A DNA stretch of 64,000 nucleotides from a virus, in the IMG/VR virus record IMGVR_UViG_3300027734_000039, one strand, 5' to 3'. Shown here in pieces: positions 15,248 through 57,681 of this stretch. The stretch's first letter is position 1. The number at the start of each line of letters is the position of its first letter. The notes under the pieces were generated by a model. The model was not told where the DNA came from. It ran no database searches and saw only the letters and a program-made list of their open reading frames with translations. A program made the translations under genes and the position numbers.

Positions 15248-15510
15248 TGACGACATATAGAACTTTTTATGCTGAAGCTGAAATCGACGTTGATCTTAAC
15301 GAGTGGGACGATGATGAACTTATCAAAGAACTCGAGTCTCGAGAATATCAAATTACACCAAGCGGCGGTCATCCTCAATACGAAGAAATGAAGGACGATA
15401 TTTTCGCGCTATATAAAGAATGGATGGATGATCAAGGCGACCGTGATAATCGTTTCGAAAAAGCCATGCGTAAATTTTTTGAAAAACATTTGGATAAGGT
15501 GAGTGCATAA
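15247..15510 (+). CDS. hypothetical acidic protein
   Basis: ORF in a coupled gene run. Confidence 0.6.
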   Translation: MTTYRTFYAEAEIDVDLNEWDDDELIKELESREYQITPSGGHPQYEEMKDDIFALYKEWMDDQGDRDNRFEKAMRKFFEKHLDKVSA

Positions 15511-16163
15511 TGAACAACGCTAAAATTATTGCTGTTTCTCAACCGACTGACGGTTCGTCTGTTGATGAGTTTGTTGCCTACGTAGCTCGAGTTTCTAATC
15601 CTTCTAATCAAAACAATAAAGAAACAGCTCCCAAGTTGCTTCGGTATCTTGCAAAACATAAGCACTGGTCGCCATTTGAGATGGTAAACATTTGTATGGA
15701 AATTGAAACGACTCGAGATATTGCTCGTCAGATTCTTCGCCATCGTTCGTTCAGCTTTCAAGAGTTCTCTCAACGTTATGCTGATCCTACTAATGATCTT
15801 GGATTTGTTGAACGTGAAGCTCGATTGCAAGACCAAAAGAACCGTCAGAATAGTATTGAAACAGATGATACTGCACTACAGCAACAATGGGAATCATATC
15901 AGCGTGATGTTATCCGTAAGGTTACTGGTGCATATCAATGGGCTGCAGAAAATGGTATTGCTAAGGAACAAGCTCGTGCAGTTCTTCCAGAAGGTCTTAC
16001 CGTCAGCCGTATGTATATGAATGGCACTCTTCGTTCATGGATTCATTACTGCCAGCTTCGTATGGGTGTAGAAACTCAAAAAGAACACCGTGAAGTTGCA
16101 ACAGACGCTTGGTATCAAATTACAGCAAAGTTCCCAAGCTTGAAAGACGCACTAGATATTTAA
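15510..16163 (+). CDS. thyX: flavin-dependent thymidylate synthase
   Basis: HWSPFE; RQILRHRSFSFQEFSQRY; AKEQARAVLP; TQKEHR. Confidence 0.97.
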   Translation: MNNAKIIAVSQPTDGSSVDEFVAYVARVSNPSNQNNKETAPKLLRYLAKHKHWSPFEMVNICMEIETTRDIARQILRHRSFSFQEFSQRYADPTNDLGFVEREARLQDQKNRQNSIETDDTALQQQWESYQRDVIRKVTGAYQWAAENGIAKEQARAVLPEGLTVSRMYMNGTLRSWIHYCQLRMGVETQKEHREVATDAWYQITAKFPSLKDALDI

Positions 16164-26245: not shown

Positions 26246-27073
26246 ATGAATTGGATTTGGTCTGACTTTGATCCTAACTCTGAAAACTCGCAAAAGTTGA
26301 TTAAAGCAAAACAAGAAAACGGTCCTGACTTTTGGAAAGAAATGCGGGAAGTTCTTGATTATGATTTGAAAACTTTGCCGATGGCAAGATTCAGATTTTG
26401 GGCATATATGCATATTATCCCTCTCGTAACTACATCTCGTTCAGCAAGGTTCATTGGCGCTGCTTTTACTGCAGCTTACAAGGATCCTATTGTTCATGAT
26501 GCTCTTATTGAAAATTGGGTTGGCGCTCCTTCTGGTACAGAAGCGCCGTTTAGAGTAGTTGATGACTTTAGCACATCAGCACAGCGTTGTCAGGACGTTG
26601 CTCACCTTACACTCAATGATTTTTGGCCAACCGATCTAAAGAAGTACAAGAGAATTCTTGAAATCGGTGGTGGTTATGGTAATATGTGTTCTGTAGTTCA
26701 TGACATGGGATTTGAAGGGGAGTATACACTTTTCGACTTTCCTGAAGTTCATAAGGTTCAAGAATACTATTTGACTAAAAATGGTTTGAATAACATTAAG
26801 TATGTTTCAGATTGGCAAGATTTGGAAACATATGATTTGGTTATCGCGACTTGGTCGTTGTCTGAAATTCCTTTGGAGTTGAGAGAAAACGTAATGTCAA
26901 AGATCAACGATTCTAAGGATTGGTTGGTCACTTATCAGGAAAACGCATTCAGCGGAACTCTTGATAATAGCAAATGGTTCCGTGATAAGTTCGAGGGTCG
27001 TAATCCTGAGTTCACGTTCATTCGCGATGTTCCTTATGATGGTAAAAATTTCTATATGAAAATTAAATCATGA
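26246..27073 (+). CDS. putative sugar O-methyltransferase
   Basis: ILEIGGGYG; FDFPEV..QEYYL; ATWSLSE. Confidence 0.75.
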   Translation: MNWIWSDFDPNSENSQKLIKAKQENGPDFWKEMREVLDYDLKTLPMARFRFWAYMHIIPLVTTSRSARFIGAAFTAAYKDPIVHDALIENWVGAPSGTEAPFRVVDDFSTSAQRCQDVAHLTLNDFWPTDLKKYKRILEIGGGYGNMCSVVHDMGFEGEYTLFDFPEVHKVQEYYLTKNGLNNIKYVSDWQDLETYDLVIATWSLSEIPLELRENVMSKINDSKDWLVTYQENAFSGTLDNSKWFRDKFEGRNPEFTFIRDVPYDGKNFYMKIKS

Positions 27074-27489
27074 TAGTAGGGTTTACCTGCGGAACGTTTG
27101 ACTTGTTACATCCAGGTCATGTTTCGATGCTTAGAGAATGTAGTTCTCGATGCGACGTTTTGGTAGTGGGGTTACATACAGACCCCACTATCGAACGCCC
27201 AAATAAAAACAAACCAATACAATCGACCTTCGAAAGATACCTTCAACTCGAAGCAGTAAAATGGGTTGATAAAATTATCCCTTACGATACAGAAAGGGAT
27301 TTAGAAAATCTTTTCGCAACTTTGAATATAAATAAAAGGTTCGTTGGTTCGGATCATTTAAACGACGCAACGTGTTTAGATATTTGTAACGATCGAAATA
27401 TAGAAATTGTATATACTAATAGAGACCATGACTGGAGCTCTACTGAATTGAGAGATAAAATTGGAAAAGCGAAAAGCAGTATTCTTTGA
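27070..27489 (+). CDS. HIGH-class cytidylyl/adenylyltransferase (TagD/RfaE-II-like)
   Basis: GTFDLLHPGH; LVVGLHTD; SSTELR. Confidence 0.88.
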   Translation: MIVGFTCGTFDLLHPGHVSMLRECSSRCDVLVVGLHTDPTIERPNKNKPIQSTFERYLQLEAVKWVDKIIPYDTERDLENLFATLNINKRFVGSDHLNDATCLDICNDRNIEIVYTNRDHDWSSTELRDKIGKAKSSIL

Positions 27490-28009
27490 TCGCGACGGCG
27501 TAATTAACGAGCTCGTTGAAAGAGCAGATGGTAATTACACTTCTCCTTGGACCGTTGACGAGTTCAGATTCCTCCCTTACGTTAAAGAAGCAGTCAAGAC
27601 CGTAAAGGATCTTGGGTTTATGACTTTTGTAGTCACAAACCAACCTGGAGTTCATGACGGTGATATGGACCGTTCTCAGTTAGATCTTATGAATAAGATG
27701 ATTAAAAACTGGCTCGGTGTTGATGATATCCTTTACGCTCTTGATAAAACCTCTGATTATTACAAGCCAGGAAATGGTATGATCGAGGCATTAATTGAAA
27801 AGTATAATATCGATAGAGACGGAAGCTATATCATAGGCGATCGTTGGAAAGATATAGTTCCTGGATATAGAAGTAAACTGACTACAATGTTCCTTGGTGA
27901 CTTGTATGTTTACCCACACGACTTAAAAGAAATTCAACCTGATTATATGTGCATTGACGTTTTGGATGCATGCTGCACAATTATGGAGTTAGAAAATGAA
28001 GGGTTTTGA
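27461..28009 (+). CDS. gmhB: D,D-heptose 1,7-bisphosphate phosphatase (HAD-IIIA)
   Basis: AVFFDRDGVIN; VVTNQP; KPGNGM; IGDRWKD. Confidence 0.85.
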   Translation: MEKRKAVFFDRDGVINELVERADGNYTSPWTVDEFRFLPYVKEAVKTVKDLGFMTFVVTNQPGVHDGDMDRSQLDLMNKMIKNWLGVDDILYALDKTSDYYKPGNGMIEALIEKYNIDRDGSYIIGDRWKDIVPGYRSKLTTMFLGDLYVYPHDLKEIQPDYMCIDVLDACCTIMELENEGF

Positions 28010-28988
28010 AGAGAACGAGATTTCTAAGAACGCACATGGCGGAACGGAAATAACAAAGCGTAAACTTGCTAGTCTCGTTCCAGAAAAGTTGGCTAATGAG
28101 TTTCAAATTATTCCTTCTCGTTTTAGAGACCTTAACGAAGAAAAAATTCGCGTTTACTGGATGCACGACCTTGCTGAAGATCCAGAACTCAGTCATTTGA
28201 AATCTAAGGAAAGTAGAAACCGCTTTCATAAGTTCGTTTTCAACTGTAACTGGCAGCTAAACGATTTTAATACAAAGCTTGGGTTTCCTCTAGACGATAA
28301 AGTTCAAATTATCGAAACTCCAGTTGATCCTATTCCTCTTCTTGCAAAGGAAAAGGAAAAGGTAAATTTGATTTACTTTTCGACACCTCAGCGTGGTCTT
28401 GAGTTGCTCGTTCCTATTTTTGAAGAGATTGCAAAGAACAGACCGAATGTTCATTTGAATGTTTTTTCTAGCTTTAAGATCTATGGTTGGGAAGATTCCG
28501 ATAAGGCTTACAGTGGCATTTATGATCGTATTCGTAATCACCCACAGATGACATATCATGGCTTTGCCGATCAAGCTACTCTTCGCGAGCATGTACAAAA
28601 GTCTCATATCCTAGCCTATCCTTGTATTTGGAAAGAAACTGCATGTAGAGTTCTTATTGAATCTATGTCAGCAGGTTTGCTTTGCGTTCATCCTAACCTA
28701 GCAGCTTTGTCTGATACAGCAGGACAGCTAACTTCGATGTATCAGTTTAATGAAAATATTAACAGCCATGCCGAAACTTTTTATAAGCATTTGAGTCATG
28801 CTATTGATATTGTAAACGAAGATCAGGTTCAAAACTATTTGAAGTTTGTTAAAGCTTATGCAGATAGAAGATTCGATTCTAACATGATCGCTCATCAGTG
28901 GCAAAATATGATGATCGATCTTAAGGAAGCTTATCCTACAATCGAGTCGCGTAAAGCTCCTGCTAGAACTTTTACATATAAAACATGA
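27996..28988 (+). CDS. GT-B (family 4-like) glycosyltransferase
   Basis: GGTE; STPQRGL; YPCIWKETAC..ESMSAG. Confidence 0.85.
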   Translation: MKGFEENEISKNAHGGTEITKRKLASLVPEKLANEFQIIPSRFRDLNEEKIRVYWMHDLAEDPELSHLKSKESRNRFHKFVFNCNWQLNDFNTKLGFPLDDKVQIIETPVDPIPLLAKEKEKVNLIYFSTPQRGLELLVPIFEEIAKNRPNVHLNVFSSFKIYGWEDSDKAYSGIYDRIRNHPQMTYHGFADQATLREHVQKSHILAYPCIWKETACRVLIESMSAGLLCVHPNLAALSDTAGQLTSMYQFNENINSHAETFYKHLSHAIDIVNEDQVQNYLKFVKAYADRRFDSNMIAHQWQNMMIDLKEAYPTIESRKAPARTFTYKT

Positions 28989-29974
28989 TAGTAACAAAAA
29001 CTCCACTGCGTATTAGCTTCTTCGGTGGAGGGAGCGACATACCTCAGTTTTATAACGACCATCCTGGGCTTGTTATATCAACAGCGATTAACAAACACAT
29101 TTACATTGCTGCCAATCATTGTGTTGCTAATCATATCAAGCTTGTTTATTCAGAGATGGAATATCCTAAAAACATAGCAGACATTAAACACGATAGAATT
29201 CGTGAAGTGCTTCGTTATATGGGCATTACAAATAATATTGAAATTGCTAGTTTCTCCGACGTTCCTACGAAGGGAACAGGATTAGGTTCTTCATCTACAT
29301 TTACTGTTGGCATATTGGCAGCTCTTGCTAAAGAATATGGGTTTCCTTATAACAAGAGGGATCTAGCAGAACTTGCTTGTCATATCGAAATTGATAAGTG
29401 TAATGAACCTATCGGAAAACAAGATCAGTATGCTGCTGCCTACGGTGGCTTTAATGTTATTCGTTTTGATAAAGATAAAGTATCTGTAACTCCAGTTCCG
29501 ATTGGGATTGAAGTTTTGGACAAATTACAGTATAATTTATTTGCATACAATACTGGTATTAATCGTCAGGCGTCTTCTATCTTATCATCTCAAGTAGATA
29601 ATTTAAAGAGTGGCGGGGATACTATAGAAAATACAAAGGTAATGGTAGATCTAGCCGAAGAAGCATTAGGTTATTTGATTAATTCTAATTTAAATTCTTT
29701 TGGCGAGTTGCTCGATAAATCTTGGACTTATAAGAAAAAACTATCAGAAAATATCAGTAACATTCATATTGATAAAATGTACGAAACTGCTATGTCTGGT
29801 GGCGCTCTTGGTGGTAAGTTACTAGGAGCTGGTGGCGGTGGTTATATGTTATTTTATGTTCCTGAAGATAAACACTACACCTTTACTAAGAAAATGAATA
29901 ACTACGAAAGATTTAAATTTAAATTTGTAGAATACGGTTCTACCGTGGAGATGTTTAATAATGATAAAGAGTAA
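28985..29974 (+). CDS. hddA: D-glycero-alpha-D-manno-heptose-7-phosphate kinase (GHMP)
   Basis: TPLRISFFGGGSD; GTGLGSSS; GKQDQYAAAYGG; GKLLGAGGGG. Confidence 0.9.
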   Translation: MIVTKTPLRISFFGGGSDIPQFYNDHPGLVISTAINKHIYIAANHCVANHIKLVYSEMEYPKNIADIKHDRIREVLRYMGITNNIEIASFSDVPTKGTGLGSSSTFTVGILAALAKEYGFPYNKRDLAELACHIEIDKCNEPIGKQDQYAAAYGGFNVIRFDKDKVSVTPVPIGIEVLDKLQYNLFAYNTGINRQASSILSSQVDNLKSGGDTIENTKVMVDLAEEALGYLINSNLNSFGELLDKSWTYKKKLSENISNIHIDKMYETAMSGGALGGKLLGAGGGGYMLFYVPEDKHYTFTKKMNNYERFKFKFVEYGSTVEMFNNDKE

Positions 29975-30560
29975 ATTTTTTTGCGATTATGCTAATATGA
30001 TCAAGGAAGCTTCTGTTAAAGTTGACGAGAAAGAAGTCGCAGAAGTTTGTGATATACTAAGAAATGCTTACCTCAATAACACCCCAGTTTATGCAATCGG
30101 TAACGGTGGCTCTGCTGCAATTTCTCAGCATTTTTCATGTGACCATTCTAAAGGTGTTTGTCACGATACTATGTTAAAGGGTAACGTAATTAGCCTTGCG
30201 ACAAACGTTTCTCTTATGACCGCCATAGCTAATGATTACAACTATGACGAAGTATTTTCAAAACAAATAGAATATGTTAATTCGAAGTTTGTAAGTTCTA
30301 TCTTAATCGCGATATCTTCTAGCGGTAACTCTAATAACATCCTAGAGGGGTTGAAAACTGCAAGGAGATTAGGATGGGCTACTATCGCTTTCGTTGGTTT
30401 CGATGGCGGTAAGGTTTACTCGGAAAAGCTTGCAGATAATATCATACTCGTTCCTAGTAATAATTATGGGGTTGTCGAAGATATACATCAAATGCTAATG
30501 CATTCTATCTCCCAGGAAATACGTAAAGAACACTGCTCTAATCCTTCTATGAAGTTGTAA
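29961..30560 (+). CDS. gmhA: phosphoheptose isomerase (SIS)
   Basis: GNGGSAA; TAIANDY..FSKQ; ISSSGNS; VEDIH. Confidence 0.88.
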   Translation: MIKSKFFCDYANMIKEASVKVDEKEVAEVCDILRNAYLNNTPVYAIGNGGSAAISQHFSCDHSKGVCHDTMLKGNVISLATNVSLMTAIANDYNYDEVFSKQIEYVNSKFVSSILIAISSSGNSNNILEGLKTARRLGWATIAFVGFDGGKVYSEKLADNIILVPSNNYGVVEDIHQMLMHSISQEIRKEHCSNPSMKL

Positions 30561-50847: not shown

Positions 50848-51501
50848 TTAGAAAGTTGAGCTGGATTCAACAGCAATCCAGTATTCAGCCTCACTTCCCT
50901 TGAAGTGAGAGATACCACGCGAACAAATGCTTACATCGTAATCGCCTGGAATGATCTTAATATTTTCAGACTTAAAGATTGCCTTGAAGGTCTTATCAGT
51001 TTCGCCGATAGCGATAGAATAGATATCGCCAGAAGGATTCTTTGTATCAGCAGCCTGAAGATAAACCTTGCTACCGTCACCAGAAACAACGATCTCAGGA
51101 AGCTGAAGAACGCCAGAAGCCTTTTCGACATCCTTAAGATTTTCGTTGGTGAGACGGAAAGAAACGTCAACCGAAGGAAGTGTGATTTCCTTTTCGGGAA
51201 CCTTAGTAATAGTAGACTCATCAGCATAGGTGTAATGAGTGCTCTTATTATTGTCACCGATATCAACAAACTTTTCGCTGAACTTCAACTCAGGCTCATT
51301 GAAAAGGCTAAGAGTTGAAATGAAACGATCAAGGTTGTAGATAGCGAAACGCTGACCAAACTGAGTTGGGACGTTTGCCTTTGCCATGATTGTCTTTGAA
51401 GGAGAAATGGTCTTCAAAGTATTACCTTCCTGGATAACGATGGAAGGATTAATCTTAGCGAAGTTCTTAAGAACACTAATTGTATTCGCATCAATTTTCA
51501 T
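50848..51501 (-). CDS. gp45: sliding clamp
   Basis: LKNFAKINPSI; FAIYNLDRF; KIIPGDYDV; YWIAVE. Confidence 0.95.
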   Translation of the reverse strand: MKIDANTISVLKNFAKINPSIVIQEGNTLKTISPSKTIMAKANVPTQFGQRFAIYNLDRFISTLSLFNEPELKFSEKFVDIGDNNKSTHYTYADESTITKVPEKEITLPSVDVSFRLTNENLKDVEKASGVLQLPEIVVSGDGSKVYLQAADTKNPSGDIYSIAIGETDKTFKAIFKSENIKIIPGDYDVSICSRGISHFKGSEAEYWIAVESSSTF

Positions 51502-51751: not shown

Positions 51752-52603
51752 TCACTTCTTTTTCTTAAGAGCACCAGGATCGGCAGTTGCTGCTGCTCCG
51801 ATAGCGGCCAAGTCAGCAAGCGAGCCACCAAAGATATAGCTACCGACATGCTGAAGCTTCATCCATGGGCAAAACCAAGTTTTGATTTGAGCAGCCTGTG
51901 CCTTCTGACAGAACCAATAATCTTCCGAAAGATAACGCTTTGACTCTGGATCAACTTCAGCCTGGAAGAACATCATAATTTCACGTGTACCATCGAAATG
52001 TTCTGTACGAACGTGATCAGGCTTGTACATATACTGATCCTTGTAGTGTTCGTAGAACTTTTGCATTGCCTTCTTTGTAACCATCATGAAGCCAGTTCCA
52101 ATTTCAAGAACTTCACAAGGCTCGCTGATAGCGATGCTCTGCTGGCCACCCTTTGGATTGAAAACGTAATCGCCAACAAACTTTTCAAGGACGTTAGGAT
52201 TTTCATCAGCAAGACCCTTATCAACGGCAAGCTTAATCTTTTCCCAAGAGATACACTTCTTAGGATAAGGACCGCCAATGATCTCGTACTTTTCTTCTTC
52301 CTGTGCCTGAAGCGCCATCATTGCGATAACGTCCTGAGGATTAAATCCAATATCAGAGTCAATGAAAATCATATGACTTGCATCTGAACGCATAAACTCG
52401 TCGCAGCAATAGTTACGAGCACGAGTAATCAACGATTCGTTGAAAAGAAAATACATTTGAAGAGGAATGCCATACTGAGTGCAAAGAGCAGACAAATCTG
52501 CAACAGACTTAGCAAACATACCTGCGCACTGACCGCCATACATTGGGGTAGCGATAAAAAGCTTACGCTGACGTAGTTCTTCGATTGGGATATTAATTTC
52601 CAT
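51752..52603 (-). CDS. GT-A fold glycosyltransferase-like protein
   Basis: IATPMYGG; ESLITRARN; FIDSDI (DxD); GTGFM; LSEDYWFC. Confidence 0.75.
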   Translation of the reverse strand: MEINIPIEELRQRKLFIATPMYGGQCAGMFAKSVADLSALCTQYGIPLQMYFLFNESLITRARNYCCDEFMRSDASHMIFIDSDIGFNPQDVIAMMALQAQEEEKYEIIGGPYPKKCISWEKIKLAVDKGLADENPNVLEKFVGDYVFNPKGGQQSIAISEPCEVLEIGTGFMMVTKKAMQKFYEHYKDQYMYKPDHVRTEHFDGTREIMMFFQAEVDPESKRYLSEDYWFCQKAQAAQIKTWFCPWMKLQHVGSYIFGGSLADLAAIGAAATADPGALKKKK

Positions 52604-52908
52604 TATTTACCATCCTTATAGTGATCGTTATACAGACACATTATTGTGTAATGCAAGACCTTCATCAAGTCATCTTTGTTATTGCCATTCTTTTTACCAT
52701 AACGCCATAGATACTTTATAGCGGTGTTACGGAAAGTAGGAGTGGCATCATCGAGAGCAATCCAAGCATCAAAACATTGAACGTTATTTTCTGTTTGGTA
52801 ATGCTGCCCGTATGTCTTATCTATATAGGCATGAAAGTCAGCGATAATTCGACCTTCGGCATATTTATACTTAATTTCTTTTTCCTTATCAACTTTAGGA
52901 AGCCCCAT
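52603..52908 (-). CDS. DUF3310-like protein
   Basis: TYGQHY..AIKYLWRYGKKNG..DL.K..HY. Confidence 0.7.
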   Translation of the reverse strand: MGLPKVDKEKEIKYKYAEGRIIADFHAYIDKTYGQHYQTENNVQCFDAWIALDDATPTFRNTAIKYLWRYGKKNGNNKDDLMKVLHYTIMCLYNDHYKDGK

Positions 52909-53437
52909 CAACCAACTCCTTAATCTTATCAAATACTTTCTGCTGTTCGCAGAGGGCATTGTTGTCATATTTTTCTATGTTAAACATTAAAGAAAAATTA
53001 GTTAGAATGTTAGCGATCTTAGTTTCACGACCCTGTAACCAAGTTTCGTTTTGTTCGCTACCACGTTCTTTATAGCGTTCTTTTCTCACCTCTTGTTTTG
53101 TTCCTAGATATATGATCTGGGTGTCGAACTTTTCAACACAGTTTTCTAGGAAAGAAGAGGTAAACAAACGATCACCCTCAAATAATAGTATACTATCATT
53201 TGGCAAAGAGTCAAGGAATTTTATTGCCTCTGGCTGAACCGCCATAGACATTCTATCAGTTCCTGAAAAGACCTCGCCTTCTTCATACTTACCAAGAACA
53301 TAAACATTGTTCTTTTGCATATAAGGAACGAGCTTAACTTCGTTATACTTCGGTTCAAGTTCGTAAAAAGAGATAATACGTTTCATAAGTGTGGTTTTAC
53401 CGCTTCCAGGTTCACCACCAATCGCAATAACTTTCAT
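52895..53437 (-). CDS. P-loop nucleotide kinase (DNA-modification associated type)
   Basis: GGEPGSGKTT; LGKY..FSGTDRMS; FEGDRL; R.ERGS.Q. Confidence 0.8.
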   Translation of the reverse strand: MKVIAIGGEPGSGKTTLMKRIISFYELEPKYNEVKLVPYMQKNNVYVLGKYEEGEVFSGTDRMSMAVQPEAIKFLDSLPNDSILLFEGDRLFTSSFLENCVEKFDTQIIYLGTKQEVRKERYKERGSEQNETWLQGRETKIANILTNFSLMFNIEKYDNNALCEQQKVFDKIKELVDGAS

Positions 53438-53439
53438 AA

Positions 53440-54591
53440 TTACTCCATAAAGCTTTCAATGCCTTTCGGCTTATTAAAGTCGTTAGTAAAACAATCCCAC
53501 TCTTTATCCATCATTATAACTTGACCTGTATGAAGATAGTGGTTTTGCTTTTCTTTCGTAAGTCCTGGATCTCCTGGCGTATCTTCTTGTCGTAGATGAA
53601 CGGGTAAACAGTCTTTTCGCATTTGCCAGAATAGATCAAAGTTCGAACCCCATTCCGACTCTGCATATCTAATACGATCATGAAACATATCCATATAAAC
53701 GTTTGGGTAACGGCGGTTGGGTCTGTGCCACGACTTGTAGCAACAGAATGTTGATTCTAGTGTAAAGAAACTTACATCTTCATGCTTAATGCGAGCTTTA
53801 GCTTCTTCAAAAAGAATATCTGCTTCTCGTTCAAGCCATTGAATTGTTTCTGGCTTATACTTTAGTTCTTGCTTCCACCAGTCTAAGTCGTCTCTTCCTA
53901 GGACTTTACAAAGACCATTTCTATGACTACGAGAGCCATCAATATCCCCAAGAAAGAGACTATTGCAATCGAGATCGAGTCCTTGGATACGAAGATATTC
54001 CAAATATGAAAAAGTAGAAAGGCGACCGAAGCTAAGAAAATTAGTTCTGACATAATCCCAAGTCCTTTCGAAATTTTTGTATTTATCTCCAGTGTTTTGA
54101 AGATGTTCAAACAAAGCAGCTTGGGAGCCGAACTTATCAACTTGATTCTTATAAGCTTGAACGCATGCAGGGAAACCTGTTTTGCCAATCTTAAAGTATT
54201 TACGATCTGTATCCCAACCAGAACCAGCTTTAAACTTCTGATGATTATCATTCCACCAAGAGTCTAGTTTATCAATATCAAGATCTTTGATAGTCGGAAA
54301 CTTTTGTAGGATCATATAAGTCGTAACGATGTTTTGCGAACAACCATTAACGAAAGCGGTCCAAAGTTTCTGCTCTTTATCCATATTAAAATGTTTAGCG
54401 AGCCAAGGCATAGCAAAATACACAGCACCTGGATGCGACTTATTTTTCAAATGAAATTCATAAAAACGAAGGAAAACTTCGCGACGATAAATCGGTCGGC
54501 GAAAATCCATTCCTTTTTCTAAATTAGATATTTCTGGTTGATTGTTTAGTTCGGACCAACGTCCAATAATTTGATCAGAAGAAGTTGTCAA
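53440..54591 (-). CDS. amino acid:DNA transferase-like protein (aGPT-Pplase2/ADDT, HhH glycosylase fold)
   Basis: DTDRKY; FGRLSTFSYLEYL; SHRNGL; TLESTFCCYKSW..RYP; TTG start inferred. Confidence 0.7.
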   Translation of the reverse strand: MTTSSDQIIGRWSELNNQPEISNLEKGMDFRRPIYRREVFLRFYEFHLKNKSHPGAVYFAMPWLAKHFNMDKEQKLWTAFVNGCSQNIVTTYMILQKFPTIKDLDIDKLDSWWNDNHQKFKAGSGWDTDRKYFKIGKTGFPACVQAYKNQVDKFGSQAALFEHLQNTGDKYKNFERTWDYVRTNFLSFGRLSTFSYLEYLRIQGLDLDCNSLFLGDIDGSRSHRNGLCKVLGRDDLDWWKQELKYKPETIQWLEREADILFEEAKARIKHEDVSFFTLESTFCCYKSWHRPNRRYPNVYMDMFHDRIRYAESEWGSNFDLFWQMRKDCLPVHLRQEDTPGDPGLTKEKQNHYLHTGQVIMMDKEWDCFTNDFNKPKGIESFME

Positions 54592-55354
54592 GAGTACTCT
54601 TTTCCTCGCCCATGAAATAAAACCCATCTAGATTATCAGCAACAGGAAACTCTTTTGTTTCAGTTTCGTGCTTACCAGGAATAGCAGCAAAGTAAACAGC
54701 ATTCCTAGCTCTAAATGCAGCTCTAATTATACTATAACCAAAACGATTATACAACCAGTTTGAATAAGCACTTACATAATCATACTTATCATTAACTTGA
54801 GCCGAGAGAATTTCACCATACTTTTTGCCATGAATAGTCATAGGATAAGTTACTGATGTATCTGTCCAAACAACAAGCTTAGGATTAGATTCGAACATTT
54901 TATCGAAACCATTTTTCCACTTAGTTGTTATTTGAAGAATACTCGAGTTAGGCAAATCAAGAAACTTTAAATCGCTTTCGTCGTTTTTCTCAAGAGCCTT
55001 TTGAGCATCTTCAAGATCAACTGTAATAGGGCAATCCCATCTTGTGCTAAGAAGATGTTCTACGCACCCAGCATCAAGTTCGCCAACATTATGCTTAGAA
55101 ATTTTAAACAGTTTTTGAATTAAAAGAGTTTGAACTCCGATACCAGCCATATATTCTCTAACAGAATAATTTTCATCTGGCTGTATAACATTTTGCAAAA
55201 GCCACTTTGTAGCCCAGCACTTGGCGGCTACTAGATCCGTGTGCTGGGCTGCATAGTGAATATACGAACGATTGTGGAGGCTTACGCTATCTTCTGACTT
55301 AACATCAATGTTAAACGGAAGGTCCCACTCATTACAAATTTTAGCAATTTTCAC
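54575..55354 (-). CDS. SAM-dependent methyltransferase-like protein
   Basis: REYMAGIGV motif-I-like; GELD; FLDLP. Confidence 0.5.
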   Translation of the reverse strand: MKIAKICNEWDLPFNIDVKSEDSVSLHNRSYIHYAAQHTDLVAAKCWATKWLLQNVIQPDENYSVREYMAGIGVQTLLIQKLFKISKHNVGELDAGCVEHLLSTRWDCPITVDLEDAQKALEKNDESDLKFLDLPNSSILQITTKWKNGFDKMFESNPKLVVWTDTSVTYPMTIHGKKYGEILSAQVNDKYDYVSAYSNWLYNRFGYSIIRAAFRARNAVYFAAIPGKHETETKEFPVADNLDGFYFMGEEKSTLDNFF

Positions 55355-56673
55355 GCAAAGAAATCCTCAAGAGTAGATGTTTCATCCTTACCATAAGGAT
55401 CCTTCATATCATGCTTATGAAGGTAATCATACCACTCTTGATCTTCCCACATTCCTGGGGAAACGCCATTCCAAAGAGGACGCCAAAACTTATGTTCCTT
55501 ATTCATGCGACGTTCGTCAACGTACTGCTTACGAAGCATTTCATAATCATATGACTTAAGTTCGAGCATCTTTTCGCGGAAATAACAAACCAACGAAATA
55601 CGTTCTGCCTTATCGTGGTTTAAAACGATAGGAGTGTTACCGTGAATAATTTCATGATTGTTAACAAGAAGCAGATCGCCTGGACGAACGTTCACAGCAA
55701 CGCGAACTTCTGGAAATACAAGATAGCCACCAGTATACTCGCCATCCCCAAGAACAAGAAGATTAGAAAGACCTTCATTCAAGTCACCAGCATCTCGGTG
55801 ACAAGCAGTACGGAATGACTTATTAACTGTGATTGTAGTAAACACAGTTTCAGGAACAAGGAAACGAGGATCAATTTTATCGGCAGCTGCCTTCTGATTG
55901 CTCCAACGCCAGTTGAGAAGCTCCTTGAAACCTTTATTCAAAGTTTGCATGAAAGGATAGCAACCCTTGAACTTTTCAAAGTTCTTTTCAGTATAAGAAG
56001 TTGCGCGACCATAAGGGATACGAGGATAACGATCGTACCAACCAGCAACGCCAGACATAACAGACTTCGCATAGTTAGTTGTTGATGCCCACTTTTCAGC
56101 AACCATCTTCGCTTCATCACGAACTGTTTCTTGTGGCTTGTTTGCGAGACCATCAACCCACTTATCGAACCAACCATGATACTCAGGATAAACCTTTTCA
56201 ACTTCTGAACGAAGCCAAACTGTTCCGCGAGTTTCGTCGCTATCCTTAGGATTGCCGTTCTTATACTTCTCACGAATGCTTTCGATTGAAACGTCATCAA
56301 TCAAACGTGCGCCATCATCCATAAGGAAGTCAAGCACTTCATGCTGATAAGCAGTTACCCAATCACGACCACCACGACCTTCAACAGCTAGCATATCCCC
56401 ACGAGGACCAGCGGCGATACCACGGTTTTGAGATTCAGTTGCTGCTTCGCGCAGAGCTTCATAAGCTGAATTTTGTTCTTCTTTACTAAAGTAATTTTTA
56501 CGGAACTTAAAAGCAATACGAAGTTCTTCGTTATCAGAATCGTCTAAGCTTGATGCAGCTAGAAAACAATCAGTATCTTCTTCAACCAGAATATCATAAT
56601 GCGACTCGTCAGGAAACTGACCGAGCATATCTTCTCTGTTAAACTTTTCTTTAGCTACAATTACCTTAACCAT
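55351..56673 (-). CDS. TET/JBP family 2OG-Fe(II) dioxygenase
   Basis: FTTITVN..TACHRDAGD (HxD); IHGNT (distal His); RISLVCYFRE. Confidence 0.85.
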   Translation of the reverse strand: MVKVIVAKEKFNREDMLGQFPDESHYDILVEEDTDCFLAASSLDDSDNEELRIAFKFRKNYFSKEEQNSAYEALREAATESQNRGIAAGPRGDMLAVEGRGGRDWVTAYQHEVLDFLMDDGARLIDDVSIESIREKYKNGNPKDSDETRGTVWLRSEVEKVYPEYHGWFDKWVDGLANKPQETVRDEAKMVAEKWASTTNYAKSVMSGVAGWYDRYPRIPYGRATSYTEKNFEKFKGCYPFMQTLNKGFKELLNWRWSNQKAAADKIDPRFLVPETVFTTITVNKSFRTACHRDAGDLNEGLSNLLVLGDGEYTGGYLVFPEVRVAVNVRPGDLLLVNNHEIIHGNTPIVLNHDKAERISLVCYFREKMLELKSYDYEMLRKQYVDERRMNKEHKFWRPLWNGVSPGMWEDQEWYDYLHKHDMKDPYGKDETSTLEDFFA

Positions 56674-56749
56674 TTCACTTCTCCTGTACTAGAATCGTCT
56701 TATTATATATACGACAATTATAGCTCGATTCATACATAATGTAAATATA

Positions 56750-57130
56750 TTATTCTTGTGACTTTTTTAATACGCCTTCGATATCAGGCGGTGTCCAGCT
56801 AGCTGGTTTTTGAATTTTACCATCTTCACGAAGAAGAACTTTACCGTCAACTAGCTTGGCCATGTTGCTGCGATGAACTTCTTCGAATACTTTATCAAGA
56901 GGAATACCATATGACACAGCAGTACCACATGCAATGTAGATAATATCAGCCAAGGCATCTGCGATTTCAATAAGATCATTTTCGTTTTCCGCAATAGTAT
57001 ATTCATACATTTCTTCAGAAAGAAGTCTCATCCTTAGTGTTCGTTCGGCAGTATCAGGAATCTCTGGCTTTTCGCCGATGCGCTGACCGAAAGCCTTATG
57101 AAATTCTTTTACGTCTGTAAACATTGTCAT
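56750..57130 (-). CDS. MazG-like all-alpha NTP pyrophosphohydrolase
   Basis: VKEFHKAFG; EEMYE; ADALADIIY; EVHRSNMAK; DGKIQKP. Confidence 0.88.
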   Translation of the reverse strand: MTMFTDVKEFHKAFGQRIGEKPEIPDTAERTLRMRLLSEEMYEYTIAENENDLIEIADALADIIYIACGTAVSYGIPLDKVFEEVHRSNMAKLVDGKVLLREDGKIQKPASWTPPDIEGVLKKSQE

Positions 57131-57681
57131 TGTGTAATCCATTCTGGTGGTTGGCGTTTTTTCCAATTATGCATCCTAGCTTTACCAATCTTATAATAAT
57201 TTCGGTAATTAGTCAAGGGGTCGTCTGAAATAATATATTCCTCTGCCATGCAAGAAGGCATGGGAGTCCAATCATACTCTTGAAGATTCTTAGGAGGAGA
57301 CTGCAGCATATAAGAAAGCTCGCCATTACACTTATGAACTTTTTCGTATCTGTGGATATACTCGTTCATAAGTGCAAAAAAATGTTCTACGAGCCAATTA
57401 TAGTTTTCAACAGAAGTTCGACACCAAACAGCCGAAGGATGATTGACATGAGTTGCCGAATACATTACTGAATCGCGAGCATCGGGAAGGATATATGCTT
57501 TTGTTTTACGAGTTTTGCCCGTTTCAAAATTTACTTTAACAGCATCAACAAGCTCGCCATCTAGAACACGGTGAGCGGTCGAGAGCAACTGTGCGCTCTC
57601 GAGAATCATTTTTACAACATGTTTATCGACCATCCATTCAGCAGCTTGAACAGGGTCATGACTGATGTAGAAGATATTCAT
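57127..57681 (-). CDS. pyrimidine dimer DNA glycosylase/endonuclease V-like protein
   Basis: MNIFY..DKHVVKMILESAQLLSTAH; HVNHPSAVW; YRNYY. Confidence 0.75.
   Translation of the reverse strand: MNIFYISHDPVQAAEWMVDKHVVKMILESAQLLSTAHRVLDGELVDAVKVNFETGKTRKTKAYILPDARDSVMYSATHVNHPSAVWCRTSVENYNWLVEHFFALMNEYIHRYEKVHKCNGELSYMLQSPPKNLQEYDWTPMPSCMAEEYIISDDPLTNYRNYYKIGKARMHNWKKRQPPEWITQ

Follow-up and report, generated by a model that had tools for sequence, protein, structure and literature searches.

A Mobile Four-Gene Cassette Predicted to Modify Thymine in the DNA of an Uncultured T4-like Phage

A Four-Gene Cassette in the Replication Module

The locus studied here lies in a 64,000-nucleotide stretch of viral DNA (IMG/VR record IMGVR_UViG_3300027734_000039; this whole stretch is called the window) from an uncultured T4-like phage. 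Within the T4-like replication module, between the gene of a MazG-like enzyme and the genes of a DUF3310-like protein, a GT-A fold glycosyltransferase and the gp45 sliding clamp, we found a cassette of four genes. They encode a TET/JBP-family dioxygenase (TET), an S-adenosylmethionine (SAM)-dependent enzyme (c15), an amino acid:DNA transferase (AADT, formerly aGPT-Pplase) and a P-loop kinase. This cassette most likely decorates thymines in finished DNA. As a whole explanation, we favour with moderate confidence that these four genes, and not their neighbours, are the functional unit, that they modify thymine post-replicatively and that they do so while tethered to the clamp. The genes of the locus are as follows.

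56750-57166, minus strand: MazG/PRA-PH-type nucleoside triphosphate pyrophosphohydrolase, 138 amino acids (Pfam PRA-PH, 7.6e-23)
55351-56673, minus strand: TET/JBP-family Fe(II)/2-oxoglutarate dioxygenase, 440 amino acids (Pfam Tet_JBP, 9.6e-25), ending in STLEDFFA
54575-55354, minus strand: c15, class I SAM-dependent enzyme by its AlphaFold2 (AF2) fold, 259 amino acids, ending in STLDNFF
53440-54627, minus strand: AADT of a divergent subtype, 395 amino acids (phrog_3271), ending in GIESFME
52895-53437, minus strand: P-loop kinase, predicted 5-hydroxymethyluracil DNA kinase, 180 amino acids (Pfam Ploopntkinase3, 2.1e-12)
52603-52968, minus strand: DUF3310-like small protein, 121 amino acids (phrog_480, 2.5e-21)
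51752-52603, minus strand: GT-A fold DxD glycosyltransferase by its AF2 fold, 283 amino acids (phrog_1574 as sole family match)
50848-51501, minus strand: gp45 sliding clamp, 217 amino acids (Pfam gp45-slide_C, 2.9e-16; phrog_223, 2.1e-73)

An earlier note on this DNA had read the seven open reading frames (ORFs) from MazG to GT-A as one hypermodification cluster. All seven are present on the minus strand at these positions, and their ends overlap or nearly abut. Six of the seven domain calls were borne out, while the Pfam match behind the DUF3310 call (8.3e-5, 23.0 bits) fell just below the cut-off of 24; the calls of a methyltransferase-like protein and of a GT-A enzyme held at the level of the fold, for which structure prediction was needed. 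The gene order is not due to chance, since the same order is found in many independent metagenome contigs.

The steps of the pathway that we propose are all inferred from family membership and context. TET would convert thymine in the phage DNA to 5-hydroxymethyluracil (5hmU) without the help of ParB, and the P-loop kinase would phosphorylate the hydroxymethyl group on the DNA. AADT would displace the phosphate by means of Cys295 and Glu291 and attach an amino acid or an amine, and c15 would add a methyl or other SAM-derived group to the appended moiety, again on DNA. The clamp, gp45, would hold TET, c15 and AADT on the DNA. The modification likely protects phage DNA from host nucleases. The core of the earlier idea, a route from TET/JBP through kinase and AADT to SAM-dependent tailoring, is thus retained on the basis of the family assignments and of the lack of ThyA-family, C5-methyltransferase and ParB genes in four relatives; GT-A, DUF3310 and MazG drop out of it.

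Cassette Swapping in the MazG-DUF3310 Slot

To separate the genes of the pathway from their neighbours, we relied on about 150 related IMG/VR loci, whose ORFs from TET to gp45 were clustered and whose representatives were annotated. The backbone order is gp46, pdf, a 184-amino-acid protein, MazG, the slot, DUF3310, GT-A, (DsbA-like) and gp45. The MazG-DUF3310 slot is a hotspot that was found to hold at least nine alternative cassettes.

TET-TAGT, where TAGT is a TET-associated glycosyltransferase
TET-GATase-c6-GNAT-c9-AADT-kinase
TET-GATase-c20-AADT-kinase
TET-AADT-inositol-1-phosphate synthase-c12-kinase
TET-AADT-kinase
TET-N6/N4 methyltransferase-AADT-kinase
TET-c18-GT-B, with a dGTP_diPhyd_N protein replacing DUF3310
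TET-kinase
TET-c15-AADT-kinase, the form of the window, which is rarer (L016, L044, L045, L138 and L163)

In these loci, AADT and the kinase travel together and exclusively behind TET. The slot is empty in L104 and L157, where MazG, DUF3310 and GT-A are contiguous and no TET is present. In three other loci of close relatives (L140 and, by tblastn only, L107 and L141) it is filled by about 8 kb without TET, located between the 184-amino-acid gene and DUF3310-GT-A. The filling of L140 (1621-9681) encodes a divergent homologue of thymidylate synthase (2.7e-13) together with a dCMP deaminase, four unknown proteins and a C5 DNA-methylase-like protein; judged by these genes, this cassette relies on pyrimidine enzymes that act at the nucleotide level.

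This comparison points to TET, c15, AADT and the kinase as a mobile, TET-dependent unit and to MazG, DUF3310 and GT-A as resident genes of the backbone. Natural swapping of cassettes in one slot thereby separates TET-dependent genes from bystanders, and four genes are left. A link of MazG, DUF3310 and GT-A to the pathway, as the earlier note had it, is unsupported because these genes persist in relatives without TET (L104, L157, Sinorhizobium phage phiM12 and Ochrobactrum phage OC); in addition, none of the three ends in the C-terminal tail, described below, that the DNA-acting enzymes share.

Two neighbouring genes deserve mention. The 184-amino-acid Pyr_excise-like gene (57127-57681) was considered as a glycosylase of the pathway and rejected, being a backbone gene in TET-less relatives with a marginal Pfam match. 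Separately, a dGTP_diPhyd_N protein (Pfam 1e-34) stands at the position of DUF3310 in L066-L070 and L073 (e.g., L068:6269-6655), which hints that the two kinds of protein are functional alternatives.

Family Assignment of TET, AADT and the Kinase

TET matches PF12851 with 87.2 bits (cut-off 34.9) over residues 223-367, and phrog_24024 at 4.4e-149. Its iron triad and its 2-oxoglutarate arginine can be read in the sequence as CHRDAGD (HxD), HEIIHGN and RISLVCYF. IMG/VR holds 199 relatives at 60-80% identity. With 440 amino acids, the enzyme differs from those of the ParB-linked clade C1, which have about 300, and falls with the group of Stenotrophomonas phage DLP6 and Caulobacter phage Cr30 (45-49% identity).

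AADT matches phrog_3271 at 6.5e-73 and has tblastn matches in 376 phage records; its true start possibly lies a few codons inside the ORF of 395 amino acids. Its place in the family was approached through its relatives. It is 31% identical (BLASTP 5e-38) to a relative that itself matches Pfam ADDT at 8e-27, 26-30% identical to clade 2 of the Ackermannviridae aGPT-Pplases and 39.5% identical to gene 3 of mycobacteriophages of the cluster B3 type (e.g., Prince). PF18724 is matched by seven of the ten homologues that were aligned (best 1.3e-57), and the context-equivalent AADT of 387 amino acids in L163, a locus that also bears c15, carries the same domain. E291 and C295 (LESTFCC) do not vary across ten homologues, among them a ViI-type (Kuttervirus) aGPT-Pplase2. 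A Glu and a Cys are essential in clade 2 AADTs (PMC8989533), and by position and invariance, E291 and C295 fit these published catalytic residues.

The kinase reaches 47.4 bits against PF18751 (cut-off 27) and has the Walker A motif GGEPGSGKT. It adjoins AADT in the window and comes after AADT in nearly every AADT cassette of the relatives. With gene 4 of the mycobacteriophages it shares 31% identity.

C-Terminal Tails and the gp45 Clamp

Tails resembling [ST]L[DE]xFF were found on 3 of the 92 non-overlapping ORFs of the window, and these are the adjacent TET, c15 and AADT. With three tails distributed by chance over 92 genes, a run of three neighbouring genes would occur in about 7 of 10,000 cases. 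Among the relatives, the tail is present on TET (77/80), TAGT (19/19), AADT (37/47), GNAT (19/20), c15 (4/4) and GT-B (3/3), and absent from GATase (0/27), inositol-1-phosphate synthase (0/9), N6/N4 methyltransferase (0/6), DUF3310 (0/53) and GT-A (0/59). The gp43 polymerase of two relatives ends in NLEDFFND and TLEDFFS, respectively. Of the 233 ORFs of a 98%-complete relative, none but those of gp43, TET and AADT carry the strict form of the tail. Neither c15 nor AADT has the tail when located in a non-T4 backbone, which argues that it is not a trait of these families.

T4 gp43, gp55 and gp33 each use a hydrophobic-acidic C-terminus to bind gp45, and these C-termini are highly similar (PMC2988020). 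Because the tail resembles that of gp43 in relatives, we predict that TET, c15 and AADT are probably tethered to gp45 on newly made DNA. Structure prediction of the gp45-c15 complex gave a score of 0.59 (0.59, 0.64 and 0.59 in the individual runs), against 0.00 for the best of three controls; no interface was reported. Contact agreement between the runs was at least 80%, and the predicted local distance difference test (pLDDT) of the partner was at least 82. Of 80 solved complexes, 58 reach the mark used for such predictions, as do 2 of 110 mismatched pairs; with a score of 0.60 or under, it was reached by only 7 of the 80 and by both of the mismatched pairs that passed.

We also put forward a wider idea, as a tentative one to which we give somewhat less than even weight: hypermodification enzymes of T4-like phages are clients of gp45 through a tail copied from the polymerase, their action is coupled to the fork, and the SAM enzyme together with this AADT makes a thymidine adduct that has not been described. 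TET and AADT would be clients, joined by the SAM enzyme, GNAT or a TET-associated glycosyltransferase according to the cassette. No paper linking DNA hypermodification enzymes to sliding-clamp binding was found in the literature searched. If the idea is true, gp45 takes the role that the ParB CTP-clamp has for ParB-dependent T-dioxygenases. Published E. coli screens of ParB-less T-dioxygenases would then have lacked their activator, which would explain why some ParB-less, AADT-linked phage TETs were inactive when expressed alone in E. coli, and the clamp "toolbelt" would serve DNA hypermodification as well as replication and late transcription.

Independently of the cassette, a 237-amino-acid ORF of the 98%-complete relative G001 (127745-128458, within L174) ends in SSLNDFFTWR, and it may be a further client of the clamp.

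c15, an Unnamed SAM-Dependent Enzyme

No Pfam, PHROG or NCBIfam family matches c15, and its metagenome homologues, which form at least 63 clusters, are likewise all without a Pfam domain. Its AF2 model has a pLDDT of 91.1, and all top Foldseek matches are class I SAM enzymes. The nearest structures are Trm1, RsmD/YhhF, TYW2 and Trm5 (VIA Z of 14.9, 14.1, 14.0 and 13.9, respectively), all of which are nucleic-acid base-modifying enzymes. A SAM motif (E67-x3-G71-x-G73) and D133-x-P135 after strand 4 are invariant, and D94 is conserved. In the model, c15 has a single Rossmann domain with a small N-terminal sheet and no target-recognition domain. At fold level, the model thus places c15 among the class I SAM-dependent enzymes, in a family that has no name. 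The possibility that c15 is a C5-cytosine methyltransferase which feeds TET was considered and rejected, as it has D-L-P after strand 4, neither PCQ nor ENV, and its invariant Cys97 after strand 2.

The pair c15-AADT is found in T4-like contigs, such as L163, and also in one unrelated phage backbone, that of L164 (6001-10618) and L165 (NCBI GCA_033813855.1 contig), which has ERCC4, Rad52, a DnaB-like helicase and a beta clamp. We take c15 to belong with AADT because the pair is kept across unrelated backbones, and a stand-alone DNA methyltransferase would be unlikely to keep its partner. This bears directly on a different reading of c15, as an independent DNA base methyltransferase (N6-adenine or N4-cytosine) that provides a second protection and no tailoring of the adduct. 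A true N6_N4 DNA methylase (Pfam 5.9e-16) does occupy the same position behind TET in L054-L059 and L151, the motif IV-like D133-L-P135 of c15 is similar to that of amino-methyltransferases, and M.BseCI is among its fold matches. However, c15 adjoins this AADT subtype in every contig checked, the unrelated backbone included, its closest structures are RNA-base enzymes and not DNA methyltransferases, and a target-recognition domain is missing. We therefore regard an independent methyltransferase as unlikely and retain c15 as the putative tailoring enzyme of the AADT product.

Two further arrangements of c15 were seen. In L164 and L165, c15-AADT is followed by an 894-amino-acid fusion of radical SAM and TAGT and then by a DNA polymerase III beta-type clamp gene; TET and kinase are both absent within 6 kb of the pair. 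In L016 (2778-3920), an extra gene of 380 amino acids stands between c15 and AADT in a cassette otherwise like that of the window. The N-terminus of its product (KREDK...GGINGSKLRQ) resembles a fold-type II pyridoxal phosphate (PLP) enzyme, and no Pfam match was obtained at E <= 0.01.

The GT-A Glycosyltransferase

GT-A was modelled by AF2 with a pLDDT of 94.6. The best Foldseek match of the model is the viral GT-A STIV A197 (1.3e-8), followed by LH3, ColGalT1 and GalNAc-T domains. With the protein of the window as query, at least 592 relatives were found in IMG/VR, and the residues D82-x-D84 and H252 are invariant. A phmmer search against PDB sequences gave nothing useful, and there was no match to Pfam TAGT.

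One may then ask whether GT-A, perhaps with DUF3310 and MazG, belongs to the pathway after all, by glycosylating 5hmU as in base J or the appended group. In favour, the protein folds as a GT-A enzyme with DxD, every relative with TET has its gene immediately behind the cassette, and its homologues are conserved enough to host inteins. Since the slot also takes a cassette with a ThyA homologue, the enzyme could serve any hydroxylated pyrimidine supplied to it. On the other hand, GT-A is not tied to TET. It sits at the same place between gp46 and gp45 in phiM12, whose genome is without TET, it is present in phage OC, which has neither TET nor a ThyA-family gene, and it is contiguous with MazG and DUF3310 in L104 and L157. 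It never bears the tail, in contrast to the TET-associated glycosyltransferases TAGT and GT-B, which always do, and its nearest structures act on proteins or on unknown acceptors. A part for GT-A in the pathway thus seems doubtful to us, and we keep the pathway to the four genes of the slot.

Many metagenome homologues of GT-A have 640-1180 amino acids and contain one or two inteins with LAGLIDADG homing endonucleases (P0064, P0067, P0068, P0069 and P0087). The intein Pfam domains concerned are Intein_splicing and LAGLIDADG_2. The GT-A family is large, with 5428 representative clusters at E <= 0.001. Hosting inteins suggests that GT-A is a highly conserved and important phage protein. Elsewhere in the window, an earlier annotation of 26246-30560 lists a putative pathway to NDP-heptose along with a glycosyltransferase and a methyltransferase; such a pathway could supply one of the phage glycosyltransferases with a sugar donor.

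Role of the Modification

If the four genes modify thymine as proposed, the product could still be a sparse, sequence-specific mark with a regulatory or packaging role and not a bulk shield against restriction. Conversion by characterised phage T-dioxygenases reaches only 1-35% of T and shows sequence preferences, an epigenetic-like role was raised by O'Toole et al. (PMC13229309), and a tether to the clamp would tie marking to replication or to late transcription. Against such a mark, phages that are otherwise syntenic rapidly exchange the cassettes of this one slot, which is the hallmark of an arms race with host nucleases, and characterised AADT products protect against restriction (PMC8989533 and PMC5889632). 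We consider the sparse mark improbable and continue to see protection from nucleases as the likely role.

The Substrate of TET

In four relatives that are 82-98% complete, we found no match to the ThyA family (PF00303), to C5-methyltransferases (PF00145) or to ParB (PF02195). Furthermore, no ParB-like gene is present in the cassette and no PCQ motif among the ORFs of the window. The earlier note had named a hydroxymethylase elsewhere in the genome as another possible source of the AADT substrate; the scan, which covered the genomes of these relatives, gave no ThyA-family enzyme. Since the four near-complete relatives lack a ThyA-family hydroxymethylase, a C5-methyltransferase and ParB, thymine is the likely substrate of TET and, by analogy with these relatives, the enzyme is likely ParB-independent.

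That TET instead acts on 5-methylcytosine (5mC), the cassette modifying cytosine by way of 5-hydroxymethylcytosine, is very improbable: phage TETs of clades A and B do oxidise 5mC, P-loop kinases and aGPT-Pplase-like genes have been discussed beside pairs of C5-methyltransferase and TET (Burke et al., PMC8256090) and T-dioxygenases are able to oxidise 5mC in vitro (PMC13229309), but the four relatives have no C5-methyltransferase, the window has no PCQ motif, c15 lacks C5-methyltransferase catalytic motifs, characterised AADTs use 5hmU-derived substrates (PMC8989533) and a C5-methyltransferase co-occurs with only 6% of 5mYOX clusters (PMC13229309).

Evidence against the Proposed Pathway

Several points weigh against a clamp-tethered thymine pathway. 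The AADT of the window matches no Pfam AADT model at E <= 0.1. The kinase has no tail (0/46), though it acts on DNA in characterised systems. In L163, c15 and AADT are without the tail and a different protein of the cassette carries it. The AADT of a mycobacteriophage, which is not T4-like, ends in GLRRFK, and the AADT tail may in part be a family trait. The prediction of the gp45-c15 complex is weak support and came without an interface. A hydroxymethylase, a C5-methyltransferase or ParB elsewhere in the genome of this phage is excluded only by way of its relatives, and some ParB-less enzymes of clade C1 are reported to have shown no activity on T or 5mC in E. coli (PMC13229309).

Promoter, thyX and Relatives of the Locus

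Two more features were read from the sequence of the window.

56717-56745, minus strand: predicted sigma-70-type promoter (TTTACA, 17 nucleotides, TATAAT, then AGGAG and ATG)
15510-16163: thyX, with its RHRSFS motif as the sole basis of the call

The near-consensus promoter and a strong Shine-Dalgarno sequence occupy the gap of 76 nucleotides between MazG and TET, so that the cassette is probably transcribed from a sigma-70-type promoter of its own. These signals point to host RNA polymerase transcribing the cassette early. Late-promoter motifs (TATAAATA) were not enriched, with 9 seen and 5.8 expected. As to the call of thyX in the earlier note, the motif was found where the gene had been placed, and it is the only evidence for it.

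A megablast search of the region against 50,697 phage records gave zero matches. Close relatives in culture are lacking, and the best gp46 match is 51%. For none of the eight proteins did NCBIfam yield anything further.

Comparison with Known Systems

The type of pathway is established, and the locus opens no new category. A P-loop kinase and AADT turn 5hmU in DNA into amino-acid adducts, and metavirome contigs without a dUMP hydroxymethylase encode Tet/JBP beside kinase and AADT (Lee et al., Nucleic Acids Res 2021/22, PMC8989533). Oxidation of T was demonstrated for one phage TET (Burke et al. 2021, PMC8256090), and both ParB-independent and ParB-dependent phage T-dioxygenases were reconstituted (O'Toole et al. 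2026, PMC13229309). The hybrid route from TET/JBP to AADT had been called uncharacterised in the earlier note; in view of these papers, this no longer applies to the route, and the term now fits the end product to which any AADT pathway fed by TET leads. As a family with no Pfam model, c15 is a candidate for a tailoring step of a new kind that could yield a new modified base; such a base would be relevant to the evasion of restriction and to the enzymatic labelling of DNA.

Salmonella phage ViI and Pseudomonas phage M6 (5-NeOmdU and 5-NedU) also activate 5hmU by a kinase and substitute it through the essential Cys and Glu of an AADT. In these phages, a dUMP hydroxymethylase supplies 5hmU ahead of replication, whereas the phage of the window would make dTMP by thyX and TET is proposed to act on DNA. 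Their tailoring relies on PLP, radical SAM or flavin enzymes, whereas a SAM-dependent enzyme is proposed here. Base J (JBP1/2 and JGT of kinetoplastids) and the phage TET-TAGT pairs share with the cassette the conversion of T to 5hmU on DNA by TET/JBP. Sister phages carry TET-TAGT in the same slot, where here kinase and AADT replace the TET-associated glycosyltransferase; the neighbouring GT-A is of a different family and does not depend on TET.

The ParB-linked clade of T-dioxygenases is found consistently with GATases, P-loop kinases and AADTs (PMC13229309), and GenBank records of mycobacteriophages name a thymidine hydroxylase, a DNA glycosylase (the AADT homologue) and a kinase beside a ParB-like gene. 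These clade C1 clusters and the Prince-type cassette have the trio of 5mYOX, AADT and P-loop kinase in common with the window. They contain a ParB-like gene, and the present cassette and the four near-complete relatives have none.

For the clamp, the nearest comparison is with the clamp-binding C-termini of gp43, gp55 and gp33 of T4 and RB69 (PMC2988020), which are likewise short hydrophobic-acidic motifs on proteins that work on DNA. The known clients of gp45 are replication and transcription proteins; base-modifying enzymes are not among them in the literature searched, and binding by the enzymes of the cassette is a prediction.

In the metavirome clusters of Lee et al. (PMC8989533, Fig. 2, sequences 22-25), Tet/JBP, as the source of 5hmU, stands beside a P-loop kinase and an AADT of the aGPT-Pplase2 type. 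These authors proposed, as we do, a fully post-replicative hypermodification of thymidine and a modular pool of genes. Their clusters are gene maps only, to which the present locus adds an unnamed family of SAM enzymes, a T4-like replication module and polymerase-like tails. The points of interest here are the hypothesis of a clamp tether, the SAM-enzyme family and the hot-swappable slot.

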